Shown here piece by piece: positions 12,423 to 33,088 of a stretch of DNA of 64,000 nucleotides (position 1 is its first letter; each line of letters starts with the position of its first letter). Where the stretch lies: assembly GCF_054482525.1 (NCBI RefSeq), contig NZ_CM137006.1; one strand, given 5' to 3'. The notes under the pieces are model-generated. The model was not told the DNA's origin, searched no databases, and saw nothing but the letters and a program-made list of their open reading frames with translations. Both the position numbers and the translations under genes were made by a program.

Positions 12423-13409
12423 ATGAACGCAATAATATCGCCCGATTATTACTATGTTCTTACCGTTGCTGGTCAGTCTAATGCCATGGCGTATGGCGAA
12501 GGACTGCCATTACCGGACAGGGAAGATGCGCCTCATCCCAGAATTAAACAATTAGCGAGATTTGCGCATACGCATCCCGGAGGCCCGTCATGTCACTTTA
12601 ACGACATTATTCCACTGACTCACTGCCCACACGATGTTCAGGATATGCAGGGTTATCACCATCCTCTGGCAACGAATCATCAAACACAGTACGGCACCGT
12701 TGGCCAGGCACTGCATATTGCACGGAAATTACTGCCCTTCATTCCTGATAATGCAGGGATTCTCATCGTTCCGTGTTGCCGTGGCGGATCGGCTTTTACC
12801 GCAGGCAGCGAAGGGACATATTCAGAACGGCACGGAGCCAGCCATGATGCTTGTCGTTGGGGAACGGATACTCCGCTATACCAGGATTTAGTCAGCAGAA
12901 CGCGAGCCGCACTGGCAAAAAATCCGCAGAACAAATTCCTCGGCGTATGCTGGATGCAAGGCGAATTTGACTTAATGACCAGTGACTACGCGTCACACCC
13001 TCAACACTTTAATCATATGGTTGAAGCCTTTCGTAGGGATCTAAAACAATACCATTCTCAGCTTAATAAAATTACTGACGCACCGTGGTTTTGCGGCGAT
13101 ACCACCTGGTACTGGAAAGAAAATTTCCCTCATGCGTATGAAGCTATTTATGGCAATTATCAAAATAATGTTTTAGCCAATATTATTTTCGTCGACTTCC
13201 AGCAACAAGGTGCAAGAGGACTGACGAACGCGCCTGATGAAGATCCGGACGATTTAAGCACGGGATATTACGGTTCAGTGTACCGGTCACCGGAGAACTG
13301 GACGACGGCACTGCGAAGCAGTCATTTCAGCGCGGCAGCCCGTCGGGGGATTATTTCTGACAGGTTTGTAGAAGCAATTTTGCGTTTGTCACATTTTCAC
13401 AAAGAATAG
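12423..13409 (+). CDS. nanS: 9-O-acetyl-N-acetylneuraminate esterase NanS
   Basis: ORF 12396..13409 trimmed to MNAIISPDYYYVLTVAGQSNA (GQSN-type motif); synteny. Confidence 0.85.
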   Translation: MNAIISPDYYYVLTVAGQSNAMAYGEGLPLPDREDAPHPRIKQLARFAHTHPGGPSCHFNDIIPLTHCPHDVQDMQGYHHPLATNHQTQYGTVGQALHIARKLLPFIPDNAGILIVPCCRGGSAFTAGSEGTYSERHGASHDACRWGTDTPLYQDLVSRTRAALAKNPQNKFLGVCWMQGEFDLMTSDYASHPQHFNHMVEAFRRDLKQYHSQLNKITDAPWFCGDTTWYWKENFPHAYEAIYGNYQNNVLANIIFVDFQQQGARGLTNAPDEDPDDLSTGYYGSVYRSPENWTTALRSSHFSAAARRGIISDRFVEAILRLSHFHKE

Positions 13410-14154
13410 TACACGCTATTCCTTGTGCAATCAGGCCAGCTCGCAATAAAGGCAGCAACTATGCTTGAAGCCCCTTTCACCGCCGGATAAATAATATCCT
13501 TACGGCAATTGGTAACCGTATAAAATGCTTGATGTTTTGAACTGCCGTTGACGAAGATGAAGTAATCTGCTTTTTTGGCAGCATCCAATAACGCATCAAT
13601 GGCAACGCGATCATTGTTGAGCTCAATTCATAGCGCCGGATACAATTTCAATAAGGCGTCTTTACCACGTTGCGTGGCATTTTTGTAATACTGTAAAACA
13701 CCCGCTTTTTCCCGCGGAGATTCCGATACAACGGAGACGTTACGCTTGCTGGTATGGTTTCTGTCGGGAGGGTACTACCGATATCCTTACAAACGTAGAG
13801 CTGTTCCATCATGCGTGCCAACAACAGCATACGGATATCCAACCGTTCCCAGCGACGTAGGAACATCTCGCGAATGTTAATCCAGTACTGTAGTCGGCGA
13901 TCGCTATCACCAGATTCACAATCATAAAGAACCTCTGCAATATCAAGAGTATACTTGAGAATTTATGTCGATTCATTTTTCGTGCACAACATTTCGATAG
14001 CTTCGAGGGCATCATGGTATTCTTTGTGACTGAAGGTCCATGAAAGTAACGTATCCAGAATAATCCCTGTAGTTGCCAAAATGAGTTGATCACTACACAA
14101 TGATTTGTTTGTACAGAAGGAACGATTATTATATGTTCTTGTAGGGCAGAGCAC
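13397..14154 (-). pseudogene. Degraded gene remnant: four short minus-strand ORFs in different frames at the left island border
   Basis: Four abutting 60-95 aa ORFs with no intact long frame; could be a yjhR-like remnant but its identity is not determinable by eye. Confidence 0.35.
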
Positions 14155-14271
14155 GTTGCTACGGTAACAGCGTTGAAGATAATTTGGTCGAGACTGTAGT
14201 GGCCCAGTTTAAAAGGTAGCAGAATTTTAAAAGTGTCAGGTGCATAGAATTAAAAAAATGGAACTATAAAA

Positions 14272-16005
14272 ATGGAAATCATGTTACCAAAAAACACCTT
14301 ATATGACAGAGAGCAAAATGTCTTTTTTGAAAAGGTTACGGCCTTAATTGGCGAAAATGGTGCTGGTAAGTCCTCGATTTTACAATCCGTATTTATTAAC
14401 TGTTTAACAAAAAAATATCTACCAGAAACAAAGGTTGTTTGTTTTTCTTCTGGACAAAATGAGAAATACTCAACGTACTTCTCTGATTATCTTTCTCATG
14501 AAAGGCAAGCAAATAGAGGTCTTAACTTAGATTGTTGTTATTACGATAAATCATGGTCAAAGTTACTAATATTCATATCCACAATTTGTAAATCAAATGG
14601 TCTTGTTAGAAATTTTTTATGTGAGAAAGGCTATATTGATGTATCAGATGATAAAAATGATGATATATCAAGCAAGCTTACATTGACGGTCCGAGTAAAT
14701 TCGGCTTACGTTAATCGAGTAAAAATGGCATTAGCACAAGAAGAACAAGGTATTGAAAATACTTTAAGGTATTCAGCTTATCATAGGACTTTAGAAAGTT
14801 TCATTAATAATATTGTTAATGCTGATTATGATTTCGAGTCTCCACTTGAAGCTCAAGAGATCTTGCTAACTCATTCAAATTTTTTCAATCCATCATTTGA
14901 GGAAGCAGAAGATTCCTTTTTTGATCCTATCATAACATTTTTCACTCAAGCAGCAGATAATGATTACTTTATAATAAAACCATCATTACAGCTAGAGTTT
15001 AAAAATAATATCGAACTGAATGATATTAGTGATGGGGAATATCAAGTACTCTTTTTATACTCTCTGCTTGATATTTTTGATAGTCCTAATACTTTATTCT
15101 TATTAGATGAGATAGATTCCCATTTACATTACAAGAATATTGAGCTCTTATGGCATCGACTACATAGTATTAATGGTTATGCGATAACAACCACCCATCT
15201 ATTAGACTCAATTACAGCTACTGATAATGATTTTAAAAACTTAAAGATTGTTGATAAAGGAAAAATAAAAGAAGATGATAAAATAAAAACTATAATAGAA
15301 CGTTTATCTGTCTTGACAAGAATATCAGACGTACAGTTCGAAGTGTGTCGTAAACTAGAAAACATAGTATTGATGGATGATTATAATGATTGGACTATTT
15401 TTTATGCCTTAGCAAAGAAAAAAGGACTTGATGTATCAAAGTTAGATGGCCTCCATGCAATAAAACAGTCCTCTGGTTACGATAATTTAAATCAAGAGTT
15501 CGCAAAACCAAAAATAGAGTGGATTAATTCGCTTTCAAATGTAAATACTGATAAGAAAGTCAAAAAAATATTCATGATCTGCGACAAAGATGAGGCTCCA
15601 ATTACCTATCAGAAAGATGGAGTTCAAGTCAATGGAAGTGAATATTCAAAACATATAGCGAAGTTAGAAAATAAAAACAAAAATAAAATATATCTCCTTG
15701 CTTGGAAAAGAAGAGAAATAAAAAACTACTTATTATCTTATACGGCATTGTCTCATCATGGATTTATCGGGCAAATAAACAATGGTGATCTGCCGGCTAA
15801 CAGTTATTTAAAAGAAAACAATCCTGGAGATAATTCAGCAATTAGCCGGCTTAATGTAAAACATTGCATCACAAAAATAATTGATTCTGATGGTATAGGA
15901 TTAGATATCTCAAAACTTTACTCATATATAGAACTTATACCACCTGCTGAGATCAGTGAAGATATAGTGAACATGTACAATTTTTTGGTGGAGAAATTAA
16001 AATGA
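14272..16005 (+). CDS. OLD-family-like ABC ATPase (577 aa) with a possible C-terminal TOPRIM/DUF4435-like region; candidate restriction component
   Basis: Walker A GENGAGKSS, ABC signature-like ISDGEYQ, Walker B LFLLDEID, H-loop TTTHLL, C-terminal DxD-like ICDKDE; about 30% GC; stop overlaps the next start (ATGA). Confidence 0.7.
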   Translation: MEIMLPKNTLYDREQNVFFEKVTALIGENGAGKSSILQSVFINCLTKKYLPETKVVCFSSGQNEKYSTYFSDYLSHERQANRGLNLDCCYYDKSWSKLLIFISTICKSNGLVRNFLCEKGYIDVSDDKNDDISSKLTLTVRVNSAYVNRVKMALAQEEQGIENTLRYSAYHRTLESFINNIVNADYDFESPLEAQEILLTHSNFFNPSFEEAEDSFFDPIITFFTQAADNDYFIIKPSLQLEFKNNIELNDISDGEYQVLFLYSLLDIFDSPNTLFLLDEIDSHLHYKNIELLWHRLHSINGYAITTTHLLDSITATDNDFKNLKIVDKGKIKEDDKIKTIIERLSVLTRISDVQFEVCRKLENIVLMDDYNDWTIFYALAKKKGLDVSKLDGLHAIKQSSGYDNLNQEFAKPKIEWINSLSNVNTDKKVKKIFMICDKDEAPITYQKDGVQVNGSEYSKHIAKLENKNKNKIYLLAWKRREIKNYLLSYTALSHHGFIGQINNGDLPANSYLKENNPGDNSAISRLNVKHCITKIIDSDGIGLDISKLYSYIELIPPAEISEDIVNMYNFLVEKLK

Positions 16006-17909
16006 ACACCTCTTTATTTGAAGATCTACTTACACTAATCAAGAAAAAGAGTTCGATAAGAAATACAGAGCAAGCAGTAGAGTTAATTTCATTATTTATT
16101 TTTTTACATTATATAAAATTATATCTTTATGAAAATGATAAAAGATTTTCAGATATAAAAAACATATCAAGCAACAACATTAATGAAATTAAATATTATT
16201 ACCAGCAACTATATGAAAGTTTTATTTTCTCGATAGATATAAAAAATATAAACCACGACATGCTTGAAAACCTCAGGAGTAAGATAGGTTTTTTAATTAA
16301 TAACATCAATGACCATGAAATAATTAAATATATAGATTATTCTATTTCGCAGATACATTCACTTACAGAATTCCATCAATATGCAAATTCTTATCAATCT
16401 TTAATTCTTAGGATGGTTAATGAATCGGGTCGTTCAGGTGAATATGTTACTCCATCTGCTTTAGTTCAGCTCATGGTTGAAATGTTATCACCTACAGATG
16501 GCACATCAATCTACGACCCAGCATGTGGAACTGGGGGTTTATTAATAGAGTCAGCACGATATATTAAAGGCAACAGTTTAAACAAAAACTTAAATTTAAA
16601 TTATTCCCTTATTGGTAATGACACATCATCATTTGCCTGTCTAATCTCAATTGTTAACCTTTTAATCAATAAAGAATTTAATTTTGAAATAATACTAAAA
16701 GATAGCTTAGATATAAATTATAAGAATAAAAAATATGACTTTGTTTTAACTAACCCACCATTTGGGAAAAAGAGCTGTTGGGATAATATTCATATTGACA
16801 CACATTATAAAGGACCTAATCTAGACTATTACTTCCTGGAGCATGTTATTGACTCTCTCGCTGTTAATGGCAAAGCAGCCATGATATTACCAGAGCGTTT
16901 TTTATATGATGTGAGTGAAGAGTGCATCACTCTTAAAGATAAGATCTTCCAAAATTATAATTTAGATTGTATTTTATCTATACCGTCAGGTGCATTGCTT
17001 CCTTACACTGCAGTAAAATTATGTATTCTTTTTATAAGTAATTCTGGCCCAACAGATAGAATATTTTTCTACAATTTAAATAATGGTGAAAAATACTCAC
17101 GTACAAATATTATAAAATTCGATGATTTTATAGATTTTTTAGAGTCAGCAAAAAATAGAACAATAACTGAACACTCCTGGATTATCAATATTAGTGATAC
17201 ACCTTCATCTTATAACTTACTCTTAAAAGATAAAGAGCGAAACTCATATGAGTTTCTTAGTGATTCTATAGTTAACATTGAACAGACAATACGTAATAAT
17301 GAATTATTACTAACAGAGTTGTCTTTATTAAGAGAAAAAATAGCAATCTTAGAGTCAACAATAAAAAATCATTCGCATGAATATGAATTTGAGAGACTTA
17401 AAGTTGGAAATATTGCAATAGTAAAATCCGGAAATTTATTACAAAAAAACAGGCTGTTACCCACTGGACCAATTCCTGTATACGGTGGAAATGGAGTTAT
17501 TGGATATAATAATGAAGCAATGGAAAATGGTGAAAATATTATTATTGGTAAGGTCGGAGCTCTTTGCGGAAACGTTCGGTATGTTCAAGGTGATATTTGG
17601 GTGACAAATAACTCATTAATTATTAAGAATTATTCACCAAATAAAGTTTTAACACCCTACCTTGCAAAATTATTATCTACTTTAAACTTAAGAAGGCTCG
17701 CCGTTGGTACCGCTCAGCAATATTTAACCACGACACAAATAAAAAATGTAGAAGTTAGTATTCCACCTTTAACGACCCAGTATAAATTAAATATTTGGCT
17801 TGATGAGTTAGATAATACGCTTGAACAATATAATAATCTCATTGAAAAAATAATGAATGATAAGCGAGAACTTAAAGAGAATTTGTATAAAGGTCTTTTA
17901 ATAGAATAG
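16002..17909 (+). CDS. Gamma-class N6-adenine DNA methyltransferase fused to an HsdS-like target-recognition domain (635 aa)
   Basis: Motif I DPACGTGGLL followed by motif IV NPPFG; C-terminal region resembles type I specificity-subunit TRDs; AT-rich; coupled to the upstream ATPase. Confidence 0.75.
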   Translation: MNTSLFEDLLTLIKKKSSIRNTEQAVELISLFIFLHYIKLYLYENDKRFSDIKNISSNNINEIKYYYQQLYESFIFSIDIKNINHDMLENLRSKIGFLINNINDHEIIKYIDYSISQIHSLTEFHQYANSYQSLILRMVNESGRSGEYVTPSALVQLMVEMLSPTDGTSIYDPACGTGGLLIESARYIKGNSLNKNLNLNYSLIGNDTSSFACLISIVNLLINKEFNFEIILKDSLDINYKNKKYDFVLTNPPFGKKSCWDNIHIDTHYKGPNLDYYFLEHVIDSLAVNGKAAMILPERFLYDVSEECITLKDKIFQNYNLDCILSIPSGALLPYTAVKLCILFISNSGPTDRIFFYNLNNGEKYSRTNIIKFDDFIDFLESAKNRTITEHSWIINISDTPSSYNLLLKDKERNSYEFLSDSIVNIEQTIRNNELLLTELSLLREKIAILESTIKNHSHEYEFERLKVGNIAIVKSGNLLQKNRLLPTGPIPVYGGNGVIGYNNEAMENGENIIIGKVGALCGNVRYVQGDIWVTNNSLIIKNYSPNKVLTPYLAKLLSTLNLRRLAVGTAQQYLTTTQIKNVEVSIPPLTTQYKLNIWLDELDNTLEQYNNLIEKIMNDKRELKENLYKGLLIE

Positions 17910-17989
17910 ATCACAGTAGCAGGGTGTCCACAATACACCCTGCTACTGGTTGCAAGTAAGTTGCAATATCTGTACTGCTGAAGCTACGA

Positions 17990-20900
17990 TTAATAATGCT
18001 CCTCAATATACCCATACGCCTTCTGGAACAACTCTTTATCTTTCCCTAGTCCAAACTGGGCCAAGGTCAGCAAAAGCGCCTTTTGGATTTCGCGCGGGCC
18101 ACTGTTAGAATTTTGCCAGCCATCAAAGCGGGTAGCTTTCACAATTTTATCAATTTGCTCTACAACATCACCGATTAACTTAGGGGTAGTTTCCGGACGT
18201 GTTTCGAGGAAAAGCTTAGTCAACGCCTGTTTATTATCAGCTTCAGTTACTGGACGCTCGCCCGTTTCGCGCTCGGCTTGAACGGTATCTTTCGCTGCAT
18301 CCAACAGGCCTTTCAACCAGTCAATGGCCTTGATAACACCAGCTTCATAGTCCTGACGCAGTTTTTCAAGGCGCTCGCCCAATGCCACAAATTTAGGATC
18401 ATGACTGCCGCGCAAACGTCCCATAAGATCAATCTCCAGGCGTTTAGCACGTTGTTCCTGCTCTTTAGCGGTCAGGGTAAAAATAGCGTGCTCGTCCATG
18501 ACCAACTCGTCAATATCATCGCGAATACGATTGATATCAGTATGCTCATGGATCATCTTGATTGTTTCGGGGCCAAGGGCAGCCCAAACAAGCGCACCTG
18601 TCTGCCCTACCGGACGCACCGATTCATAAATTTGCGCCAGCCATTTATAGTCCTGACGATAAGGGGTCAAAAAAGGGTCTGGGTTGATAGCTGACCATAA
18701 CTTGGATAACACACCAAAGCTGGCAGCGAATTCATCGCGCTTCTCGTTGGTCGGCAGGCATTCCTGCGCGGCCATAATACCTTCAAAACCAGCTATGGAC
18801 CGATCCACACCAGGGAAGAAGGACAAACATTTATTCAGTTGTAACGGCAATAGCTCTTTAAATGCCTCAATTCCCTCTACAACTCCTTCAATTTCTTCAG
18901 GGTTATAGGCCAGAGCGGTACGCAGATTTTCGAAAACGCCGAGGTAGTCGATAATTAATCCCATGTCCTTGCGTACAGTATCGGTTTCGTACAGCCGGTT
19001 AGTTCGGCACATGGCCTGCAGAAGGGTATGATCGCGTAGAGGCTTATCGAGGTACATGCAGTAGCAAATCGGGGCATCAAAGCCCGTAAGCAGCTTGGCG
19101 GTTACGATAATAAGCTGTAATGGATATTCAGGATCTTTAAAGCACTCAATTAGATCCTTTTGCACCTGCTCTTCGGCATCGATGTGCTGCCAGCGTTCAA
19201 AATCGACTTGTTTGACAGGCAGCTCCAACTCATCATGCCATTTAAGCCAATCCTTGTTGAGCTTGTCTTTTTTGCCACCCTCTTCAACTTTAATCGGAGC
19301 CTGGTCAACGTTCATAACCACTTCAACTGCATCAAAACCAAGCTTTTCACCGAGCAAATAATACATCTGCACACAGGCTTCGCGATCGTATACCACAACC
19401 ATGCCTTTCATCTTTTTCGGCATAACATGGTTGGTAAAATGCTCAGCAATATCATTACTCACCGCAGCCATACGTCTGGGAGATTTCAGCATAATAGCCA
19501 GCTTGCCGGCACGTCTGGACAATGCTGCTTTTTCTTCTTCATCCAGGTTGTTTTCGGTAGCCAGTTGCTCGAACTCTTCATTGATGGCATCACGATCCAC
19601 TCGGAGTTCAGCCAGCCGAGGTTCGAACTTCACCGGGTTAGTTGCGCCATCCCGGATCGACTGCTTATAGCTATAGCGGCTCATATAGCGACCTGGATCT
19701 TCTTCGGCACCGAACAATTTGAACGTATTACGATCAATGCCAGAAATCGGAGTACCAGTCAGGCCATAGAAGTGGGCATTGGGCAACGCCCAGCGCATTT
19801 TCTCGCCTAATCCCCCTTCCTGTGTACGGTGAGCTTCGTCAACCAACACAATGATATTGTCCCGGTTGTTCAGGCCATTAGGGTTGCTATCGTCAATTTC
19901 GATATCTTTAAATTTAAAGATGGTGGTGATTAAAATGCCACGGCTGTCTTGTTCAATGTATTCACCCAACTTTTTGCAGCTTTGCACTTTAATCAGATTC
20001 TTAACGTCGGCTCCACCAAAGGTCTCGTTAATTTGGCTGTCCAGATCTCGCCGGTCCACAACGATAAGTACCGTCGGGTTTTTTAACGCATTATCGGCAC
20101 GTAGCATTTTGGCGGCGTAAAGCATCAACAAGGATTTACCCGATCCCTGGAAATGCCAAATAAGACCTTTTTTTGGATAGCCTCTGCGAACACGCTCAAC
20201 AATTTGTTTTGCAGCTTCAAATTGCGGATAACGCGGCAAGATTTTAACGCGTTTAGGTGGAGTATTTTTGCCCGTTTTGACGGTTGAAAATAATGCAAAA
20301 GATTCCAGTAACTGCAATAAGGTTTGCGGATTTAACAAACTCTCACAGCTATTGAGTACCGATGCCAGACCCGGCAAAATTTCATCACGAAGCTCAGTAT
20401 TATGCCAGGGTCCCCAGTCTTTAACTCGGGCATTAATGGCTCCATAGGCAAAGGTTTTACCTTCGCTGGCAAAGCACAGCAAGTTAGGTACAAAGAAAGA
20501 TTCAACATTTTTCCAGTAGTACTTTTTGCCACCCATGAAATCGGCAGCACCGTCTTGCCAGGTCACGCTGGGGCGTGTTGCGGTTTTAACTTCGCCTACT
20601 ACCAGTGGCATGCCGTTCACATAAAGAACAATATCAAAATAGACTTCAGTGGCCGCGATATAGTGAACCTGCTGCGCCACTACAAAGTGGTTGTTCTCTA
20701 TATTGTCAAAATCAATCAGATTGATGGTGATATGGTCGCCATTCTTACCAAAAGGCAAGGTTTTGTCGGCCATCAACCATTCCTGGAAGTTTTCATTGGC
20801 CTTTACCAAGCCGGTATGGCGGGCTTCTAAAACCACTCCTCGCAGTTTGTAAATGACCTCATCGGCATAGTCAGGCTGTCTGCCGATATCAGGGTTTAAC

Positions 20901-21070
20901 GAACAAAGCGCGTCTTTTAGCCACTCATCAACGAATATATCCTGCGCTTGTTTAGGCAGGTTTTCACCGTGGCAGTAAGTCCACTTGACTCCGCTTAAAC
21001 CTTTTAAACGGTCGATAATTCCATTTTCTGTGACGGTTTGTTCGTTAAACATTTTATATTTCCTTATCAA
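17990..21070 (-). CDS. hsdR: Type I restriction enzyme R subunit HsdR (alternative start at 21052)
   Basis: 1026 aa; Walker A GSGKS and DEAH box (VDEAHRTQ); recognisable HsdR N-terminal nuclease region; operon with hsdM/hsdS. Confidence 0.9.
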   Translation of the reverse strand: MIRKYKMFNEQTVTENGIIDRLKGLSGVKWTYCHGENLPKQAQDIFVDEWLKDALCSLNPDIGRQPDYADEVIYKLRGVVLEARHTGLVKANENFQEWLMADKTLPFGKNGDHITINLIDFDNIENNHFVVAQQVHYIAATEVYFDIVLYVNGMPLVVGEVKTATRPSVTWQDGAADFMGGKKYYWKNVESFFVPNLLCFASEGKTFAYGAINARVKDWGPWHNTELRDEILPGLASVLNSCESLLNPQTLLQLLESFALFSTVKTGKNTPPKRVKILPRYPQFEAAKQIVERVRRGYPKKGLIWHFQGSGKSLLMLYAAKMLRADNALKNPTVLIVVDRRDLDSQINETFGGADVKNLIKVQSCKKLGEYIEQDSRGILITTIFKFKDIEIDDSNPNGLNNRDNIIVLVDEAHRTQEGGLGEKMRWALPNAHFYGLTGTPISGIDRNTFKLFGAEEDPGRYMSRYSYKQSIRDGATNPVKFEPRLAELRVDRDAINEEFEQLATENNLDEEEKAALSRRAGKLAIMLKSPRRMAAVSNDIAEHFTNHVMPKKMKGMVVVYDREACVQMYYLLGEKLGFDAVEVVMNVDQAPIKVEEGGKKDKLNKDWLKWHDELELPVKQVDFERWQHIDAEEQVQKDLIECFKDPEYPLQLIIVTAKLLTGFDAPICYCMYLDKPLRDHTLLQAMCRTNRLYETDTVRKDMGLIIDYLGVFENLRTALAYNPEEIEGVVEGIEAFKELLPLQLNKCLSFFPGVDRSIAGFEGIMAAQECLPTNEKRDEFAASFGVLSKLWSAINPDPFLTPYRQDYKWLAQIYESVRPVGQTGALVWAALGPETIKMIHEHTDINRIRDDIDELVMDEHAIFTLTAKEQEQRAKRLEIDLMGRLRGSHDPKFVALGERLEKLRQDYEAGVIKAIDWLKGLLDAAKDTVQAERETGERPVTEADNKQALTKLFLETRPETTPKLIGDVVEQIDKIVKATRFDGWQNSNSGPREIQKALLLTLAQFGLGKDKELFQKAYGYIEEHY

Positions 21071-23739: not shown

Positions 23740-25235
23740 ACCTCGAACCCTTCTTTGATAAGCAGGGCCTCCAGCTCCTCTTCTGCTTTTTCCAGCTCAG
23801 CCAGCTTCCGTTGAAAATCTTTGAGCGCCTCTTCCACAGTGATGGTTTCTTCTTCGAGTGGCTTTTGCACATAACGAGCAATATTTAGATTGAAGTCATT
23901 TTCTTCAATCTCCTTCAGAGGAACCCAGCGTGCAACGCCTTCGATTTCTTTTGCATCTGGCCCTTGTTGCGCCTGGTCATGATAGATTTGGTATATTTCA
24001 TCGGCCTGCTTGTTGGACAGCGTATTCTGCGCACGTCCCTTGGTATAGATTTCTTCAGCATTGATGATCAATACATGATCTTTATGCGCGGCCGGACGTG
24101 ATTTACGCAGCACCAAAATACACGCAGGAATCCCAGTTCCATAGAACAGGTTGGAAGCAACACCAATAATCGCCACAATGCGATTCTCTTGCAGTAATTT
24201 GGTTCGAATTGCCCCCTCTGCGCCGCCACGAAACAGCACACCATGAGGTAATACGACTGCCATACGTCCATTGTCGTTAAGTGAAGCAAACATATGCTGC
24301 ACCCAGGCAAAATCACCATTTGTTTTAGGCGCCAGGCCATATTGCTTACGGCCATAGGGATCGTTCGACCACAGATCGTATCCCCATTCTTTTAAGCTAA
24401 ACGGTGGGTTGGCAACAACGCAGTCAAAGGTTTCTAAACGATCGCTTTTTAAAAATTTAGGTTCGCGTAAAGTATCCCCTCGGACAATATCGAAATCTTC
24501 CTGTCCATGCAGGAACAGATTCATACGCGCAATAGCTTCCGTCGTTAAGTTCTTTTCCTGACCCTTGATTTTTAGTAAACGCGGATCACCACCATTTTCT
24601 TTTACATGGTGGATGGTCTCAAGCAGCATACCACCGGTACCACAGGCGGGATCGTAGACACTCTCACCGGCTTTTGGATCAAGAATGTTAACCATCAAAC
24701 GAACGATAGTTCGTGGGGTATAGAACTCACCTGCTTTCTTATTGGCTTTGTCTGCAAAGCGTTTGATCAGATACTCGTATGCGCGCCCCATATCATCGTC
24801 ACGGACACTAGAAACGCCAAGGTTCACCTTATTGAAGTGATTGAGTAACGTAGCCAGTAACTCATCAGAAAGGCGTTCTTTATTGGTCCAGCTGGCATCG
24901 CCAAAAATGCCATGCAGTTTAGGGTTTGCCAGTTCTATACCACGGAAGGACTCTTTTAAAGCCTGACCGATGTCCTTGGTCTCAGCGAAAACATCGCGCC
25001 AGTGGCAATTTTCAGGTATCTGAATACGGTGAAACATCTTGCCCTTGGCAAGCTCTGCATCCCCAACGCTCTCCATCGCATCAGCAAATTCTTCGTCATA
25101 CACGTCACAAATGCGCTTGAAGAACAAGATGGGGAAAATGTACGTTTTGTAATCTGACGCATCAATGGGCCCTGTAATAATATGGGCTGCATGCCATAGA
25201 TGGGCCTCGAGATCTTTTAGGTTAATCAGTGTCAT
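23736..25235 (-). CDS. Second, divergent HsdM-like N6-adenine methyltransferase (copy 2; extended ORF reaches 25337)
   Basis: Motifs DPACGTGGML and ANPPFS; about half of residues identical to copy 1 by eye; ATGA overlap with copy 1. Confidence 0.85.
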   Translation of the reverse strand: MTLINLKDLEAHLWHAAHIITGPIDASDYKTYIFPILFFKRICDVYDEEFADAMESVGDAELAKGKMFHRIQIPENCHWRDVFAETKDIGQALKESFRGIELANPKLHGIFGDASWTNKERLSDELLATLLNHFNKVNLGVSSVRDDDMGRAYEYLIKRFADKANKKAGEFYTPRTIVRLMVNILDPKAGESVYDPACGTGGMLLETIHHVKENGGDPRLLKIKGQEKNLTTEAIARMNLFLHGQEDFDIVRGDTLREPKFLKSDRLETFDCVVANPPFSLKEWGYDLWSNDPYGRKQYGLAPKTNGDFAWVQHMFASLNDNGRMAVVLPHGVLFRGGAEGAIRTKLLQENRIVAIIGVASNLFYGTGIPACILVLRKSRPAAHKDHVLIINAEEIYTKGRAQNTLSNKQADEIYQIYHDQAQQGPDAKEIEGVARWVPLKEIEENDFNLNIARYVQKPLEEETITVEEALKDFQRKLAELEKAEEELEALLIKEGFEV

Positions 25236-25478
25236 TGTTGTCTCTTTTCGATCCTGCAGTGCTTGAACTCTCAGCAACTCATGGATTTCACAGTAAAAAA
25301 GCAAGCAAAGCGATTCCACAACCACCTGAGCGTTCAATACGTATGACGCCTTTACCCAAGTTGCTTAAATCAAGGAAATTGCCAGAGATAATACTCTGGC
25401 ATCAGAATGATACCAAGTTGAAGGGCTGATTTCCGCATCAATACCTTGTGGTAATAGGGGATTACTCTTTTACCCTTA

Positions 25479-26046
25479 TTGGCGCAAAATGGCGGCATTT
25501 ACTCATTTCTCCATCGGAGCATCTTACGCGCTATAACCACTCTCGTTTTTTCCTATTCCCATGCAGATGAAGCACTACGCAATGAACTTGAGAAGCATCT
25601 CTCCCCGCTGAAGCGAACCGGGAAGATCACAACATGGCACGATCGCCGCATCGTTCCTGGTCAGGAGTTCGAACGTCAGATCGACCACTATTTTTCGCAA
25701 GCAGATATCATCCTGATCCTGATCCTGATCCTGATCAGCAGTGACTTTATTGCTTCTGATTACTGCTATCAGGTAGAGATGAAAAACGCACTGGAACGGC
25801 ATGACCGGGGCGAGGCGGTGGTCATTCCGGTAATTTTAAGAAACTGTGCATGGCATCAGTTATAATTCGGCAGCATTATGGCGGCGACTATCGACGGTAA
25901 ACCCATCACTAAGTTTGCCACCCACGATGAAGGCTACGTTCAGGTCGTCGAGGCCGTCTCGCGTGCCATTGCCCGGATGGAAGCCAAAAAACTACAGCAA
26001 ACCATACATATCCCTTCACCGGCTCCGGCGAATCCGATCTTTTAGG
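25479..26046 (+). pseudogene. TIR-domain gene interrupted by an in-frame TAA stop at 25863-25865; the same frame continues to TAG at 26044-26046
   Basis: TIR-like signature ...VFSYSHADEAL...SSDFIASDYCYQVEM...VIPVILRNCAW, then stop, then ...FGSIMAATIDGKPITKF... in the same frame. Confidence 0.6.
25710..25733. repeat. (ATCCTG)4 hexanucleotide repeat inside the TIR gene, encoding an ILILILIL tract
   Basis: Read directly from the sequence. Confidence 0.9.
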
Positions 26047-26445
26047 GAGTAGATTCCGTTTTTACACCGCGTTCAAGCAACCTTACTCTATCTGTTATAG
26101 CCAGGATAATGTTGTTCGAAACAGTATTAACGAAATTGTAAGCCTTGCTGATAACGGCCAGACTCTTGGTTTTCGTGCTCTGATGGGAGGCTTCAGTCGT
26201 GGAACTTCACGAGACGAACTATTGACCAATGAAGGTATGTCGGAACATCTCTGGGAAATGTTCTTCGGGCTAATCAAGCAAAGAATGTCCCGATAATTTG
26301 CCATATCACAGTCGGGCATACTGCCCGATTTTTGTGCTGTCATTATTGGCAATATCTCAATAGGCGTTGAGAAATGGTGCAATTTAATCTTGCCAGAGCG
26401 CTGTTACTTGGGGACGAAATGAATGGGCTCCTGCTGTAGTTACAG

Positions 26446-26475
26446 CAACGCCTGTATATACAAAAACAGGCGTTG
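26446..26475. terminator. 10-bp perfect inverted repeat (CAACGCCTGT / ACAGGCGTTG) just 3' of the Mrr-like gene; hairpin without a clear U-tract
   Basis: Inverted repeat seen in the sequence; no T-run on either strand. Confidence 0.35.
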
Positions 26476-26480
26476 CAAAT

Positions 26481-27476
26481 TCATGCAGGCAAATACGTTT
26501 TCTTAAGCGGCACCAACAGCTTAGTTTCAATATCCACCTGCTCATAGTTTTCCACTAACGCGCGTACCAAATCGTCCAGCGTCCATAGCGTCAACGGGAT
26601 TGTAGAACGATCGGCCTCATAACGCGCATCCTTGCTGAATCCGCCGGTACTAACATACAGCCCGCGATCGTCTTTATGACGGCCACCGATAAAGCTACGG
26701 ATTTGCTGGCTGCTCATCTGTTCCCGCCGGTGCTTCACCTCAACAATAATGCGCGGATTTTCAAACCCAAATCCGTCAGGCGAAGCAATGATGTCTTTCC
26801 CACGGTCAGCACCCGCAGGCGATACCTGAGTTTTATATCCCATGCTGCGTAACACGCCAGCGACCAGATTCTGCATCTCATCCCAGTCGAGACGGTTGAT
26901 ACGATCCTTGATGCCTTCAAAAGCGATCATTTCCATGTCGCGCAGAGGATTAGAAACGACCTCATCCTCTTCACCTGAAACAGGTACTTCCGGCACGATA
27001 TCTGAGACAGGCTTATTGCCCTGCACTAATTCATTCACAGCAAAATCAGGCACCTGAAAAACTGTCAGCGTTGAACCAAGGGTGTTTCTGGTTGCATCAC
27101 TCAGACTATCGCGCTTAATCTCTTCCGCATTCCACTTCACTTTACGGGCGATGCCCATGCCATCTTCAAGCCACTCGGCATGAAACTCAAAATCTGACGC
27201 TATTTTCCCTATTAAATAGGTCCGATTAGAAGGTGAATAAGTGATAGCCCAGTCGCCTTTCTGCATTTCATTCACAAAGCGCCAGACCTGAGAAGCTCCA
27301 GAACGAACTGTGCCTGGCTTAGTCTGTGGCTCAAGCTCCTGATACCGGGTAAACAACTGCTCTCTTGAGCATCCAGGTTTCACATAGGGAGCGAGCTGCG
27401 ACCAACCAATTGCAACAACCTGTTTGTCTCTGAAGTCGTCGTACAATTTTCCGCCATCACCGCGGATCATCCACAT
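26481..27476 (-). CDS. Mrr-like (type IV-like) restriction endonuclease with an uncharacterised N-terminal domain
   Basis: C-terminal PD-(D/E)xK-type signature ...GKDIIA...RIIVEVKHRR...QQIRSFIG typical of Mrr catalytic domains; start chosen at MWMIRGDGG (ORF extends to 27644). Confidence 0.65.
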   Translation of the reverse strand: MWMIRGDGGKLYDDFRDKQVVAIGWSQLAPYVKPGCSREQLFTRYQELEPQTKPGTVRSGASQVWRFVNEMQKGDWAITYSPSNRTYLIGKIASDFEFHAEWLEDGMGIARKVKWNAEEIKRDSLSDATRNTLGSTLTVFQVPDFAVNELVQGNKPVSDIVPEVPVSGEEDEVVSNPLRDMEMIAFEGIKDRINRLDWDEMQNLVAGVLRSMGYKTQVSPAGADRGKDIIASPDGFGFENPRIIVEVKHRREQMSSQQIRSFIGGRHKDDRGLYVSTGGFSKDARYEADRSTIPLTLWTLDDLVRALVENYEQVDIETKLLVPLKKTYLPA

Positions 27477-27597
27477 CTTAGTCGCCACAATAATTCCTTC
27501 TGAAAATACTTCATCGTTATACCGGGACGTGATCATTCCATTCAGCCATCTTATCCAGGGAAAAACACCGATAAGATGGCTAATCAAAATGTCTGTT

Positions 27598-30500
27598 CTA
27601 AACCTGACGCCTCTCAAGACTATTATAAATAGCCTCAATTTCACCTTTCAGGTTATCACCAGAGTAAACCATCGATGTATCGTATCGTTCATATCGCGCT
27701 TCCCGTGTCGCACTAAACCAGTTGAACGATCCCACGCATAGCAAACCATCATCACCAATAACAATTTTGCTATGAACACGGTTTACCAGCTTTGTAGCAA
27801 TACCCAGCGCATTCAGTTTCTCCAGCGCCGCTTTAAGGTTCTGCTGCTTCTCTTTTCGCTTCTCAAAATCTTTATGTTCAGTGTTGTAGCTTCTGTCAGT
27901 GACTATCGTGACGTTAATACCACGTGAACACGCCGCAATCATGGAATCAAGAAAACCCGTTTGCTCCAGCTTTTGCCAGGTCAGCCATGGAGAAACTATC
28001 GTGATGTGTTTATCGGTATTTTCAAACGTCTGATTCAGGAAATTATCATGCTGCTCCACACCATGGAGTGTGTAGATTTTGGTCTCGGAAGTTTTTAAAT
28101 CCTTACGCTCTTTATAATCAAAAGAGAGCGCATTCTTCTCGGACTCAAAGAGATATTTTGCCAGTAATCCCCGCGGAGATGAGGGAGGCTGGATCTCAAA
28201 CAGATCCATATCGCCGAAGACCAGGAAGCTATCCTTCGCACGGGAGACTGCAACATTCAGCATGCTGTTATCGCTATCAATAAACCCGCCATCTTCATGT
28301 TTTGAATAGACTGGCGAGAATATAACAATCGCTCTTTCCGCTCCCTGAAGAGAGTGCACGGTGCCCACGGTGAGCGACTTTTCATTCGCGCCCGTACTGA
28401 TACCTTGTTTACCCAGCGCCTGTTTGATAGTGGATACCTGCGCGCTAAAAGGCGTCACGATACCGACAACTTCATGAAGCGATTTGCCGTAATGCGCTTC
28501 AATATTTTGCTGGTTCTCTGCCAACCAGGCCGCTATCGTTTCAGCCTCAAGCAAATTATATCTACTTCCACTACTTGCCAGCTCTCCTTTACCATCAATA
28601 TGGAGATAACCCATTGCGGGCATTAAATTGCTCTCTTCGCGCCCTCTTTTAGGCAACAACTTACCGTGATAGCAGAGCGTATTACAGTATCCAATAATAT
28701 TATCGAAGCACCGGCGGTGTTCATATAGGTACATACCACGAGCCAGTTCGGGATCATATTGATAGCGCGAAGCAAACTGCGCTATTTTCATAACGCTGCC
28801 AGATGCGGCACTTTTACCAAGGTCTGCGATTGCCGTATATTTCTCGGTAATCTCTTCTTGCGTACTGCCAGACAGAATTTTTTCCGCAAGCATGTTACCG
28901 ACATCAATCGCGGGAGCAATACTCCATATTGGCGGGATCTGCTCCGTATCGCCAATCACTAATGCCTTCTTAGCTAATGCAAACGAGGCAGCAGCCACTT
29001 CAGGAAGCACCTGCCCGGCTTCATCGACAATGAGTAAATCGGCAAAATCATACAAATAACTTTTCTCGAATTTACGTTGTCCTTTGTGCTCACTTATCTG
29101 CATATTGCCGGGCAGCATATAGCATGTCATCACCACACATGGAGTGAGTTTCATTCGACGTTGCCAACGGGCGGTTACCCCTTTAGCGCCTTTTTTCTTC
29201 TTCTCTTCCTGCAGATCATCAATTCTGGCCATATCCATCAGCCAACGACCTTCCCAGTAGTGAGTCGTCAGTAAAAATGCAGGGAAGCGAATCTGCGTAT
29301 CAGCCAGTTCATCGGCCTGTGAGAAGCTCAGTTCCTCGTCGCCCTCATACCCTAAATCAAATGCCAGCCTCTGCCACTCCTGAACCGCCTGCTGTTCTTT
29401 AAGAACGATTTCATGGGCGGAGTCAATCTGCTGCCGGTATGTTGTTTGCTCGCGCTCAGCGGAATTGAGCAGCCCATCAATATTACGTTCGATAGTTTCA
29501 GGATCAGACCACTGATTTCCTGCAATCAGCGCGCCTAATTTATCTTCGAGAAACAACTGTATTTGGTACTGTCGCTTACTACGAACCGCTGGGAGCCAGG
29601 AAAATAATGAATAGATCAGTGATTCACCGGCGCGATATTTTTTCCATTCCGTTTTAGCACTCTTCAGTAGAGTGACTTTTTGTTCTTGTCCGGAAAGTAA
29701 TTTATTTAAATTATCGAGATATTGCTCAATGTCGTTAGCAATAAGCTCACGCGCAGCCCGTACCTGGCTTAACGTTTGCCATGTTGCGTTCAGTCTTATC
29801 AGTTGCTCGGATTTTGCTGCCAACTGACCATGCAGGAGTTCAATGACCTTTTCAGGGGATGAACACTCTTTTTCAGGAAAAGCTGCCTTAGCTTTCTCGA
29901 GATAAAACAGCAGTGCATCCTCTACATACTCTTTTGACTCAACCTGGTTGAAGAAATCTTCAGTTTGATATTTTTTGGCTGCCTCAGCTTTACGAGTGCT
30001 TGAGGGAAAATAAGCGCCGAAGCTTTTCAGCTCTGGCAACCATCGTCCGGCCATCGCACCTGAACCTTGCGAAAAGTCTTTCCCGAATGCCTCAATAATG
30101 TTCGTTACAGCCTGGTTATTCGTTGAAGTCGCGATAATAACCGGAGGCTCAGATTTTTCGAGAGCTGCTCTGGCCCACTGCGTGGCGATGATAGAAAGCA
30201 CCAGCGTGGTTTTTCCGGTTCCCGGAGGTCCATTAACAGCAAGGATATCGCCATGTCTTGCATCCAGAAAATGGCTTAAGGCATCGCGCTGAGCCTTTGC
30301 CAGCGGAAACTTATCTCCGGAGTGTCCAAGCCTGTCGCTGAATTTTGCTCCTGGAGCCAGCAAAGACTCTGCAGCATGAACCTCTCGCGAGGCGAAGCGA
30401 TTGAAGAGCGGCACATCCTTCTTGCAAACAAGCAGGTGATCATAAAGAGAAAGGATATGGAAACTGGCACCGCCAGATTGCGCCGTTTTAACAATATAAC

Positions 30501-31113
30501 CGTGCTCAGCGAGTTCATATTGCTCAGGATTTTTAATCCAGTCGCCGGCAACGTTCTTCAGCAGCCTCTCTGAATCATCCAGATATTGATGCCACTCCTG
30601 CTGCAAGGCTGCATATCGTGCTTCCCGTTCTTCATCCGTTTCGGCAGTCTTATCAATGCTGTCATCAAAGTTGATAGAGAACGAGGTATGGATTGTCTTG
30701 TATTTGTCATACTGCCCAATCTCACCAATCGAAAATGCTCCTTTTGGCAAAGGTTCAAGCAGGTCTCTGGGAATGGAGGTCGCTGGCGTCGGATATAAAA
30801 AACCCTCACGGCTGAGCAAGGCTGGCGTCACTAGCGGGGTAACAATATCAGGTGCGCCTGCGGAACGGTCCTTACCATGCTGCAGTAACCGAAAATAAAC
30901 TTTTGGGCGCAAGACGACATCGACCGTTTCGACATCGTCTTTTTCTCCCTCAAAAAATTTACTGACAATCGCTTCGTCAAGACGTCCCGCCGCTATCCCA
31001 TGCCAGTGAGTGAAATTTTTGGCGTCTTTCCGTTCAAAACTGCCCTTTCCTGACTCAGCATCCGCAAGCGAGTTGCGCCAGTATGAGGCAAACCCTAAAG
31101 CATTTTCATCCAT
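27598..31113 (-). CDS. Upf1-like SF1 helicase fused to a C-terminal phospholipase-D-family nuclease (1171 aa; Mokosh type II-like)
   Basis: Walker [11 protein letters not shown], Walker [21 protein letters not shown] and [16 protein letters not shown] helicase motifs; C-terminal HxK(x)4D motif [19 protein letters not shown]. Confidence 0.7.
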
Positions 31114-31438
31114 TACCAGTCCTATGACTCAATGAAATCCATTGATTTATCGAATATAAAATCACCGTATGGATAACTATTGTCCACGTTGCAAGGCTGG
31201 CTGCAATGTTTTGTTCACGCTTCGATACAAATACTCAGGTTATACGGAGTTCAGAAAACGACCATATCATGTTGCATGGCACATAAAAGCTTTATAACCG
31301 AAGCAGCAAAGGATTACCGGCTGCGCAGCACGCCCCGAAAGCCCGTGAGCCCTGCTGGACAGCGTTCAGTGCAATATTGGAGCCTGTAAGTTCAGAAAAT
31401 ATCGCTGTCGAAGATGGTTCTGTATGTAGGCGCGCCAG

Positions 31439-31816
31439 CTATCGTTTTGTCCGATGCTTGCGAATAAAAGCATTCAAAATGTCGCCTTCACCATGCATGA
31501 CAGAAAAAGAATATTCACATTCTTTCTTTATCAAGATTCCACATAATTCCTTGTGCAAATCAACATTAACTCCCTTTCCTTTCTGCGCTTTCTTCACACC
31601 GAGCTCACATGAACTGATTAATTCAACGGTACAGGGTTTCTTCAGATAATTCACACCATCAATTAAGCCCTGGAGAATGCATCTATTTGCGGTCGTATCA
31701 CTGTAGGAGAAAGTCAGATATTTTATTTTTCCTTCGTATTCCAACACAACCTCCGCCGAACCTTCACGTGTTGCAGCATCACAACCTCCTGTTGAATATA
31801 TTTTTACCATCTTCAT
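31439..31816 (-). CDS. Small hypothetical protein (125 aa) with weak RNase HI-like resemblance; the usual catalytic acidic residues look substituted
   Basis: By-eye similarity of VKIYSTGGC / TANRCILQG to RNase HI VEIFTDGSC / TNNRMEL; speculative. Confidence 0.3.
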   Translation of the reverse strand: MKMVKIYSTGGCDAATREGSAEVVLEYEGKIKYLTFSYSDTTANRCILQGLIDGVNYLKKPCTVELISSCELGVKKAQKGKGVNVDLHKELCGILIKKECEYSFSVMHGEGDILNAFIRKHRTKR

Positions 31817-31884
31817 TTTGTAACTTTCCCCTTACCAAACGAATCGCGACATCCTATATCAAAGGCATTCTCGTCAAAACTTAA

Positions 31885-32664
31885 TTATCTCAGTAAATTC
31901 TTCCGATGCCACTCCAGATAACAATACGATTCAACAGAAAACGCCTTTATTTTCTCCGGCAACAAACATTGCTCTTTAACGCTAATATCCAGCGCCTTAC
32001 TAATTAATAAATGCCCATCGTTCTCAAACGAAATCCATCCCTGATCGAATAGAATATCAATATGCGCAGCCAATATAATTCCATTAAAAGGATCAAGCCG
32101 TTCATTCCCATTCTCGCAGGCAGCCCACGGCTTTATATGGCTGGTACGCAGTAAAGGTGCAAACGTCGTTCCCGTAACAGGACATGCCGGATACAACATA
32201 AGACAATTTTTCCGAAAGGTACCTTGCCCCAGCCGTGCCGCAATCAGCTGCTCGCGTACGGTATCTTCAATACTTTTATCCTGCTGAATAGCAAGACAGT
32301 CACGTTGTGCCTGTTCATCTCCAGCAGAAGATATTAACGAAAGAACGCGCTGCTCAATCGCACTGTCTGAAAGCACACTCATTCGCTGATACACACGCTG
32401 CGCTGAATGAGAAAGCGCAGCAGGAGCGCCCTGCTCGTCAAGCCAGCCGACACGCACATCACTAAGCCAGGAATCAAAACGGTCACGACTATTTTTCAGA
32501 CTATTGTGAAACTCGCTGGCAGTTTTGCCCGCTCCAAATCGAGGATAAAACAAGGCAAAAGCCTCTTTCCATTTCTGAACACCCAGTCCTGCGGGTGGTT
32601 GAGATTTTCCGTACTTCGACAAATACCACGCCACTTCAAGCAAATCGTCTTCAGAGCTATTCAA
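31885..32664 (-). CDS. HNH-motif endonuclease-like protein (259 aa)
   Basis: C-terminal CPVTG...SHIKPW...NG..L...H..FD.GWISF pattern characteristic of HNH nucleases. Confidence 0.5.
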   Translation of the reverse strand: MNSSEDDLLEVAWYLSKYGKSQPPAGLGVQKWKEAFALFYPRFGAGKTASEFHNSLKNSRDRFDSWLSDVRVGWLDEQGAPAALSHSAQRVYQRMSVLSDSAIEQRVLSLISSAGDEQAQRDCLAIQQDKSIEDTVREQLIAARLGQGTFRKNCLMLYPACPVTGTTFAPLLRTSHIKPWAACENGNERLDPFNGIILAAHIDILFDQGWISFENDGHLLISKALDISVKEQCLLPEKIKAFSVESYCYLEWHRKNLLR

Positions 32665-32967
32665 TATTACGTCCTGTTTTTGCAGAGTAAATTATCACCA
32701 GATTATATCTGAAAAGATCGTTTACTAAACTGATCTGCTTACCTGCAAAACGGTACTGCAAACGCTAATACTCAGAACCATTAAGAGGAACAAGCAGGTG
32801 CATTCCGCTGCCATCGGTCAGTTTGTATTGCTTATCCCCTGCCTCTAGGTACAAGCATTTTCGAAACGGAAATACCATTATCTGTTGGTAGATGTACGTT
32901 GAAGTTGGTTCACCTGGAGAGAGTTAATATAGCGGGAAAGGTAGGTAAATACTGGATTTCAGGTATA

Positions 32968-32990
32968 AAAAAAGACCTCAGTTGAGGTCT
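32968..32990 (-). terminator. Rho-independent terminator of leuX (GACCTCAACTGAGGTC hairpin followed by a T-run on the minus strand)
   Basis: Hairpin plus A-run on the plus strand immediately 3' of the tRNA. Confidence 0.7.
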
Positions 32991-33003
32991 ATTTACATAC
33001 TTT

Positions 33004-33088
33004 TGGTGCCGAAGGCCGGACTCGAACCGGCACGTATTTCTACGGTTGATTTTGAATCAACTGCGTCTACCGATTTCGCCACTTCGGC
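33004..33088 (-). tRNA. leuX: tRNA-Leu (anticodon CAA), leuX
   Basis: Reverse complement reads GCCGAAGTGGCGAAATCGGTAGACGCAGTTGATTCAAAATCAACCGTAGAAATACGTGCCGGTTCGAGTCCGGCCTTCGGCACCA, 85 nt with CAA anticodon loop and CCA end. Confidence 0.95.

Follow-up and report, generated by a model that had tools for sequence, protein, structure and literature searches.

How an island of defence genes comes to lie beside a tRNA gene with no integrase of its own is the question raised by the leuX locus of Escherichia coli, here examined in a stretch of 64,000 nucleotides of contig NZ_CM137006.1 (assembly GCF_054482525.1), which is called the window throughout. The leuX region is defence hotspot #37 of E. 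coli (Hochhauser et al. 2023, PMC10121019), and according to that paper the site is occupied in 97.3% of genomes, with a defence system in 97.4% of the occupied sites, 31 system types overall and no detectable mobile element in 68% of cases. Because the occupants of hotspot #37 are usually without a recognisable mobile element, an integrase-less defence mosaic at leuX is to be expected rather than surprising. In the window, the tRNA-Leu(CAA) gene leuX is the single tRNA gene (ARAGORN, with Rfam concordant), the nanS reading frame terminates at 13409, and between them lies an interval of 19,594 bp (13410-33003), flanked by leuX and ahr on one side and by nanS, nanM, nanC and fimB on the other. 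An earlier interpretation made from the letters alone, referred to below as the sequence-only reading, had described this interval as a mosaic defence island without a working integrase and seemingly immobilised, and the present analysis supports that description. The gene identities, the two gene ghosts, the absent attachment (att) repeats, the population frequencies, a counterpart in Salmonella and the continued use of leuX make it very probable that one or more integrative islands entered the 3' end of leuX via P4-type tyrosine integrases, were later remodelled by deletion and cassette exchange, and survive in the interval as an immobilised remnant.

The cargo consists, from the nanS side to the leuX side, of an OLD-like gene for an ATPase with a Toprim-like domain, with an adjoining gene for a single-chain adenine methyltransferase that joins modification and specificity parts (M·S), a type I restriction-modification (R-M) operon with two M genes, a ThsB-like TIR pseudogene, an Mrr-type nuclease gene, mkoC, and a pair of genes for an HNH endonuclease and an RNase H-like protein. 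Profiles of type I R-M, MkoC and PDC-S02 are matched (PADLOC/NCBIfam), and every open reading frame (ORF) of at least 250 amino acids (aa) in the island has a defence-family match, which bears out the earlier statement that all of its sizeable genes are defence-related.

What is left of an integrase lies at the leuX-proximal edge. The sequence-only reading had seen none, which is correct for an intact gene, there being no intact tyrosine integrase beside leuX, but it missed the N-terminus of a P4-type enzyme that survives there as a ghost. A tblastn search with the O104:H4 tRNA-Phe integrase matches this ghost over residues 12-69 (E 2.6e-9) as the sole integrase-like match in the 64 kb, and alignment with K-12 intB resolves it as approximately 60 codons of the arm-DNA-binding N-terminus without the first ~14 codons. 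Its core (32735-32836, minus strand) reads DKQYKLTDGSGMHLLVPLNGSEY*RLQYRFAGKQ, with the start codon deleted and an in-frame stop, and the same stretch is annotated by PGAP as a DUF4102 fragment in strain Ec40743. No transposase was found in the island, and the recombinases elsewhere in the window are limited to fimB and fimE, which belong to the fim switch, with none just outside the island. A search of the window and of the compared loci for copies of the leuX 3' end, with up to 3-4 mismatches allowed, returned for the window leuX itself and no partial copy at the nanS border, and between 13000 and 33300 there are no terminal direct or inverted repeats, only the paralogy of the two M genes and chance matches. 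The earlier remark that neither a transposase nor a tRNA-derived direct repeat is visible was thus accurate, and its proviso that an intact integrase and att repeats might lie just outside the interval found nothing of the kind in the 64 kb. With no integrase and no att pair, an active integrative element is rejected.

The second ghost stands at the nanS border, where the sequence-only reading had rightly noted a decayed ORF. It is the frameshifted C-terminus of DpdD, carrying two frameshifts and two stops, whose translation matches NF041061 with E 2.7e-40 at profile positions 496-704 of 704, corresponding to the C-terminal ~210 residues or ~30% of the protein; it abuts nanS and provides the last codons of that gene. 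No Pfam match was obtained for it, and NCBIfam was needed for its identification. Going by this profile match, the ghost is taken to be a remnant of a Dpd 7-deazaguanine modification/restriction cluster; a functional Dpd system is rejected, since the fragment alone remains.

In K-12 the same interval measures ~40 kb and is arranged leuX-intB-IS2...fec...sgc...yjhR-nanS. BLASTN of the window against it gives only three matches, namely nanS, ~270 bp beside leuX (~77%, gapped) and the 3' part of mkoC against yjhR, which together with the coordinates confirms that the ~19.6 kb between nanS and leuX are not in K-12. The KpLE2/PR-Y element of K-12 resembles the island in occupying the same leuX-nanS interval, in having a P4-type integrase (the intB pseudogene) at leuX, in the ~270 bp of leuX-proximal sequence and in yjhR, a fragment of an MkoC homologue. 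It differs in its length of ~40 kb and in its mostly metabolic and insertion sequence (IS) content (fec, sgc and yjh genes), and has no other sequence in common with the island. The yjhR pseudogene, which adjoins nanS, matches the 3' third of mkoC at 70% nucleotide identity (window 27599-28819 versus 40812-42031 of L003; L numbers denote the loci compared), and from this alignment has the look of a Mokosh type II homologue that was truncated and stayed behind at the KpLE2 edge. To describe the island as replacing KpLE2, as had been done, is therefore apt insofar as the content differs from that of K-12, but it overstates K-12 as the reference, because K-12 itself retains this fragment.

The population counts were obtained from 5426 complete E. 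coli genomes, with the whole interval scored as present when at least 80% covered. On this basis the whole interval occurs in 100 genomes, the dpdD ghost in 102 (island carriers only), the ATPase-methylase pair likewise in 102, the type I block, with hsdS variable, in 109, the HNH/RNase H-like module in 140 and mkoC in 839. Because only ~100 of the 5426 genomes carry the whole interval, the island is not the common or ancestral state in E. coli, which answers a question that the sequence-only reading had raised against itself. The window is colinear with the chromosome of strain ECE313 from fimH through mgtA. Strain Ec40743 agrees with the window from leuX through the integrase ghost, the HNH and RNase H-like genes and mkoC, and has different cargo after that; the nanS-proximal half of its hotspot (L004 4184-8372), where nanS is truncated, holds fosA7.5, a copy of ISEc52, part of a gene for a phosphorothioate-sensing nuclease and an HNH gene.

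A counterpart of the island is present in many Salmonella enterica genomes, in the order OLD-M·S-hsdR-S-M2-M1-thsB-mrr-mkoC-truncated integrase-leuX-ahr, with 87-92% nucleotide identity to the window and 95-98% amino-acid identity for ThsB, Mrr and MkoC. The truncated integrase is represented by Arm-DNA-bind fragments of 105-155 aa, and the strains differ in that some have the OLD-M·S pair and others a Fic gene in its place. Behind the hairpin otherwise found downstream of leuX, Salmonella has the leuX 3' end a second time in degenerate form, TGGTGCAAAGGCCGGACT, ~540 bp upstream of its OLD-like gene, which is the layout to be expected at the distal att site of an element that had integrated in leuX beside an older occupant. 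The homology with Salmonella begins in the window at 14098, and the site of the expected att copy is occupied by the dpdD ghost; Dpd clusters occur at leuX in Salmonella Montevideo (PMC5699537). The hypervariable leuX region of Salmonella, with its N4-methylcytosine/N6-methyladenine (m4C/m6A) type I system of the Sen483I class (PMC5100572, PMC5699537), is thus like the window in its gene order from hsdR to ahr, including the truncated integrase, and differs from it by a longer integrase fragment, the degenerate distal leuX copy and an intact thsB, as well as by being without the HNH/RNase H-like insert and the dpdD ghost.

The continued use of the site is seen in strain PCN033, in which the island is 100.0% identical to the window until 33027, 24 nt into leuX. 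There a repeat of the last 23-24 nt of leuX, short of one G, marks the border of an inserted 49-kb element, which at its other end has an intact integrase next to a complete leuX. The 24 nt at the 3' end of leuX (33004-33027) are an attachment core still used by integrating elements. Because the PCN033 element sits between the island and leuX, leuX is a still active attachment site at which newcomers push older, integrase-less cargo toward nanS. Carried on the PCN033 element (L066 23691-25227, L002 1-40625) are, among others, a further type I system next to an AAA ATPase, a dGTPase, a thymidylate synthase and CbtA/YeeU toxin-antitoxin genes.

The sharp steps in GC content that to the sequence-only reading had suggested a stepwise assembly were confirmed by measurement, with 29-31% in the segment 14272-17909 and 43-50% between 22.2 and 31.1 kb (hsdM2 to mkoC) around a window mean of 46.3%, or, gene by gene, 30.7% for the OLD-like ATPase, 29.1% for the M·S methylase, 46.3% for hsdR, 35.1% for hsdS and 47.0% for mkoC. 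The suggestion itself did not stand, since the same array is found at the Salmonella leuX at the nucleotide identity given above, and the steps are for that reason rejected as a record of acquisitions in this strain. What they may reflect instead emerges from a gene-context scan of the OLD-like gene, in which one genome per species was taken and the neighbours were typed in the resulting 39 loci. In 33 of these, the OLD-like gene comes straight after the end of hsdR and shares its strand, and an M gene directly follows the OLD-like gene wherever downstream DNA is present. The prevailing arrangement is hsdR(EcoEI-like)-OLD-hsdM-hsdS (26 loci), followed by a co-directional M1-M2-S-R-OLD-M·S in Vibrio, Thalassotalea and Oceanospirillaceae (five loci) and by M-S-R-OLD-M·S with another type I family (two loci); hsdR was undetected in four loci (L049, L061, L064, L065), and the upstream DNA is missing in two (L027, L040). 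The low-GC pair therefore has a conserved hsdR neighbour across gamma-proteobacteria, and in Vibrio all six genes point in one direction and are tightly packed. The Vibrio M1, M2 and HsdR proteins (L021, L028, L056, L058) are 85-89% identical to those of the island, as compared with 40-59% for the OLD-like and 31-40% for the M·S protein. The GC step in E. coli is therefore best explained if a cassette whose place is beside hsdR underwent allele replacement together with an inversion, and not by an unrelated acquisition.

The course of events behind the immobilised remnant may be sketched as follows. A Dpd island would have been the first at leuX, where the OLD/type I/MkoC island would have integrated afterwards; a deletion would then have taken the distal (inner) att copy along with most of the dpd cluster, and the integrase would have been lost upon the arrival of the HNH module. 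The island's only present means of spread would be vertical descent and homologous recombination in the conserved flanks, nanS and ahr, and its modules would work as independent layers of restriction and abortive infection. Several points weigh against this account. The order of events is rebuilt from only a few genomes; no intact dpdD resembling the ghost occurs in the E. coli collection, and the earlier Dpd island is deduced from 710 bp; the copy of leuX in Salmonella, which keeps 16 of 18 core bases, is short and degenerate; homology is the ground on which each module is presumed active; and mobilisation in trans by an integrase of another element may be compatible with the sequence.

This last point corresponds to a view in which the island is still a mobile unit with cryptic ends, for which a second leuX element such as that of PCN033, or else a P4-like satellite, would supply the integrase in trans. 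That leuX demonstrably still serves as an attachment site would agree with it, as would the 98-100% identity of the island among strains from humans, dogs, pigs, cattle, birds and wastewater, and the mode of mobilisation at hotspot #37 is left open by Hochhauser et al. (PMC10121019). This view is nevertheless improbable, in that the 64 kb hold neither a second leuX core copy, even with 3-4 mismatches allowed, nor terminal repeats, the distal end known from Salmonella is deleted here, and the PCN033 newcomer settled next to the island without taking it along.

Little credence can likewise be given to the proposal that the array is ancestral, vertically inherited content of the locus in Escherichia and Salmonella, from which the K-12 type would be derived: the gene order shared with the Salmonella leuX and the mkoC-like yjhR kept beside nanS in K-12 are what it can call upon, yet just ~2% of the complete genomes of E. 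coli are carriers, yjhR, at only 70% identity with the window mkoC, belongs to another lineage, Salmonella strains exchange the OLD-M·S pair for a Fic gene, and the type I-thsB block lies at a different locus in Enterobacter kobei. The identity between Salmonella and E. coli, 87-92% at the nucleotide and up to 98.5% at the amino-acid level, also seems high for vertical descent between the genera when set against typical core-gene divergence. It is hardly credible, finally, that unrelated genes, each acquired horizontally, have come to be neighbours here by chance and form modules with no functional connection. Differences among the modules in GC content and population frequency would be in keeping with this, but it is contradicted by the position of the OLD-like gene directly after hsdR in 33 of 39 loci, with an M gene next wherever downstream DNA is present, by the co-directional, tightly packed M1-M2-S-R-OLD-M·S genes of Vibrio, and by the recurrence of the type I-thsB block in Salmonella and Enterobacter, the TIR protein cluster having Klebsiella members as well.

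Table. Features of the leuX-nanS interval and its borders, with window coordinates and the basis of each assignment.
Feature	Position	Strand	Basis
dpdD ghost	13388-14160	-	NCBIfam NF041061 DpdD
OLD-like, ATPase + Toprim-like, 577 aa	14272-16005	+	AAA_21; PADLOC AriA/mad3/PtuA/AbiLi; fold comparison
Single-chain M·S methyltransferase, 635 aa	16002-17909	+	Pfam N6_Mtase + Methylase_S
hsdR	17990-21070	-	TIGR00348; PADLOC REase_I
hsdS	21054-22292	-	PADLOC Specificity_I
hsdM2, NPPY	22234-23739	-	Motif IV
hsdM1, NPPF	23736-25235	-	Motif IV; PGAP in relatives
ThsB-like TIR pseudogene	25533-26296	+	tblastn vs ECE313 copy
Mrr-type nuclease PDC-S02, 329 aa	26481-27470	-	PADLOC; Pfam Mrr_cat
mkoC	27598-31113	-	PADLOC MkoC
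RNase H-like protein, 125 aa	31439-31816	-	NCBIfam RNase HI; PHROG 531
HNH_2-family endonuclease, 259 aa	31885-32664	-	Pfam HNH_2; PADLOC HNH
P4-type integrase N-terminus ghost	32666-32848	-	tblastn; alignment w/ K-12 intB
leuX tRNA-Leu(CAA)	33004-33088	-	ARAGORN; Rfam

A scan with Rfam at the gathering threshold gave no match in the island other than the tRNA. Outside of it, in the core chromosome, the ordinary elements Ysr276 (44103-44297, minus strand, 186 bits) and the Mg2+ riboswitch of the mgtA leader (61896-62011, minus strand, 126 bits) were found.

The type I operon (17990-25235, minus strand) has the order M1-M2-S-R, with hsdM1 first. The hsdR product scores 475 bits with TIGR00348, which is over the cut-off, and matches PADLOC REase_I with E 7e-110; hsdS encodes two target-recognition domains (PADLOC Specificity_I, E 4e-68) and is the only part of the system that is variable among the carrier genomes (83% coverage). 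The two M genes are paralogous, being seen as repeats 1499 nt apart, and in relatives of the island the hsdM1 product is annotated by PGAP with 499 aa. Motif IV reads NPPF in hsdM1 and NPPY, at residue 277, in hsdM2, and hsdM1 is accordingly predicted to be the m6A subunit and hsdM2 the m4C subunit. A heterodimeric M1M2S class of type I enzymes has been described, with NPPF in the upstream and NPPY in the downstream M gene, the order M1-M2-S-R, and m6A formed on one strand and m4C on the other (PMC5100572); it includes Sen483I of Salmonella Agona (PMC5100572; Morgan et al. 2016). On its gene order and motifs, the module in the window is assigned to this characterised class. The closeness of the Vibrio M1, M2 and HsdR proteins indicates, as far as protein identities can tell, that the m4C/m6A type I system was exchanged fairly recently between Vibrionaceae and Enterobacteriaceae.

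The protein encoded first in the low-GC pair has an N-terminal ABC/AAA_21 ATPase with the Walker motifs of AAA_21/SMC_N and with profile and fold matches to AriA, AbiLi and GajA, its best PADLOC matches being AriA, mad3, PtuA and AbiLi. Its C-terminal Toprim-like domain is placed by fold comparison alone and has no match in Pfam, PADLOC, PHROGs or PDB sequence-profile searches, nor does the protein have a sequence-level match to AriB, DUF4435 or RloB. The residues D369, D373, D438xD440 and E482 are invariant in 38 homologues, the first acidic motif being Asp-rich where the canonical one has Glu. The protein is labelled OLD-like and is not assigned to a named class. The start of the M·S gene overlaps its stop codon (ATGA). 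The M·S protein combines N6_Mtase (E 1.6e-41) and Methylase_S (E 4.4e-15) in Pfam, matches PADLOC MTase_I (E 1e-63), and has a full-length homologue in PDB 7EEW (E 4e-86); its layout comprises NPPF at residue 251, a single target-recognition domain and a C-terminal helix.

It is tentatively proposed, on positional evidence, that this pair (14272-17909) is a conserved and hitherto uncharacterised accessory of type I restriction rather than an independent R-M system. In one version of this role, suggested by analogy, the OLD-like protein could be a guard nuclease like PARIS or PrrC, which is restrained by or monitors the methylase core and fires once phage anti-restriction proteins disable the type I enzyme; in another, the M·S protein could be a second specificity core sharing HsdR. 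RloA/RloB (AbiL), PrrC and PARIS are nuclease back-ups tied to type I restriction. RloB-type Toprim proteins are known from such loci, and Ocr, an inhibitor of type I enzymes, is sensed by PARIS, which occasionally occurs as one fused polypeptide. The 577-aa protein resembles PARIS (AriA/AriB), AbiL and PrrC in its AriA/AbiLi-like ABC ATPase, its Toprim-like C-terminus and its position adjoining hsdR, and in the absence of an AriB, DUF4435 or RloB sequence match, in the Asp-rich first acidic motif and in the methylase gene that always follows it, it differs from them. Many of the hsdR-OLD-hsdM-hsdS operons also carry, after hsdS, a gene for a conserved protein of ~672 aa with no Pfam match (L008 12512-14530 and ~10 other loci, e.g. 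L030, L041 and L051-L053).

The ThsB-like TIR gene is intact in ECE313, where its product scores 508 bits with PADLOC ThsB1; tblastn comparison with that copy shows a 12-nt insertion, two in-frame stops and a 231-bp deletion in the window. No ThsA is found in the island or in its intact relatives, and with the ThsB-like gene dead and ThsA missing, a Thoeris system is rejected. The ThsB-like TIR gene, with its Y4lF-type C-terminal domain and a 102-aa ORF downstream, recurs without ThsA beside hsdM1 in Salmonella and Enterobacter kobei (L014-L018 10001-11369), and the TIR protein cluster includes Klebsiella members; in Enterobacter kobei the type I-thsB block is located near miaE and rraB. The adjacent Mrr-type nuclease matches PADLOC PDC-S02 (E 1.8e-82, 275 bits) and Pfam Mrr_cat (E 1.6e-22) and has an N-terminal domain of the DUF8426 type; its Salmonella orthologue, 98.5% identical, likewise shows DUF8426 and Mrr_cat, and the enzyme is likely a modification-dependent (type IV-like) restriction enzyme.

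MkoC is matched by PADLOC over its full length (1692 bits, residues 1-1169), with helicase and NucT-like matches, and its Salmonella orthologue, 95% identical, shows AAA_11, AAA_12 and PLDc_2. By these domains, mkoC is identified as the Mokosh type II single-gene system, composed of a superfamily 1 (SF1) helicase and a phospholipase D (PLD) nuclease. The transferable mkoC cassette corresponds to 27534-31259, a 96% identical copy of it being located directly beside the tyrosine integrase at tRNA-Phe in O104:H4. In the leuX-proximal module, the endonuclease matches Pfam HNH_2 (E 1.5e-10) and PADLOC HNH (E 7e-20), and the 125-aa protein matches NCBIfam RNase HI (E 3e-11 over residues 1-69, under the cut-off) and the RNase H PHROG 531 (E 7e-7). 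The residues of the latter that correspond to RNase HI D10, E48 and D70 seem to be replaced in an alignment made by eye. The two genes travel together in all 140 genomes counted above for the module.

Families already described account for the type I, Mokosh and PDC-S02 modules, and with the island as a whole a well-known defence hotspot gains one more documented occupant. The island conforms to what Hochhauser et al. (PMC10121019) say of hotspot #37 in its leuX-anchored position, its defence cargo including type I R-M and traces of Dpd, and its want of a recognisable mobile element; a review lists type I systems at 17% and Dpd at 2% among the systems of this hotspot (PMC12707154). It differs in that its exact combination of systems is not described in the accessible portions of these sources, and in that its integrase and DpdD ghosts show how an occupant free of mobile elements can arise. 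The hsdR-OLD-like-methylase arrangement offers a lead on the back-up of type I systems against anti-restriction. The ghosts of integrase and DpdD, the dead ThsB, the distal leuX copy of Salmonella and the tandem insertion of PCN033 together provide a concrete route from integrative elements to integrase-less defence cargo, a route that had been left open by Hochhauser et al. (PMC10121019) for 68% of the occupants.

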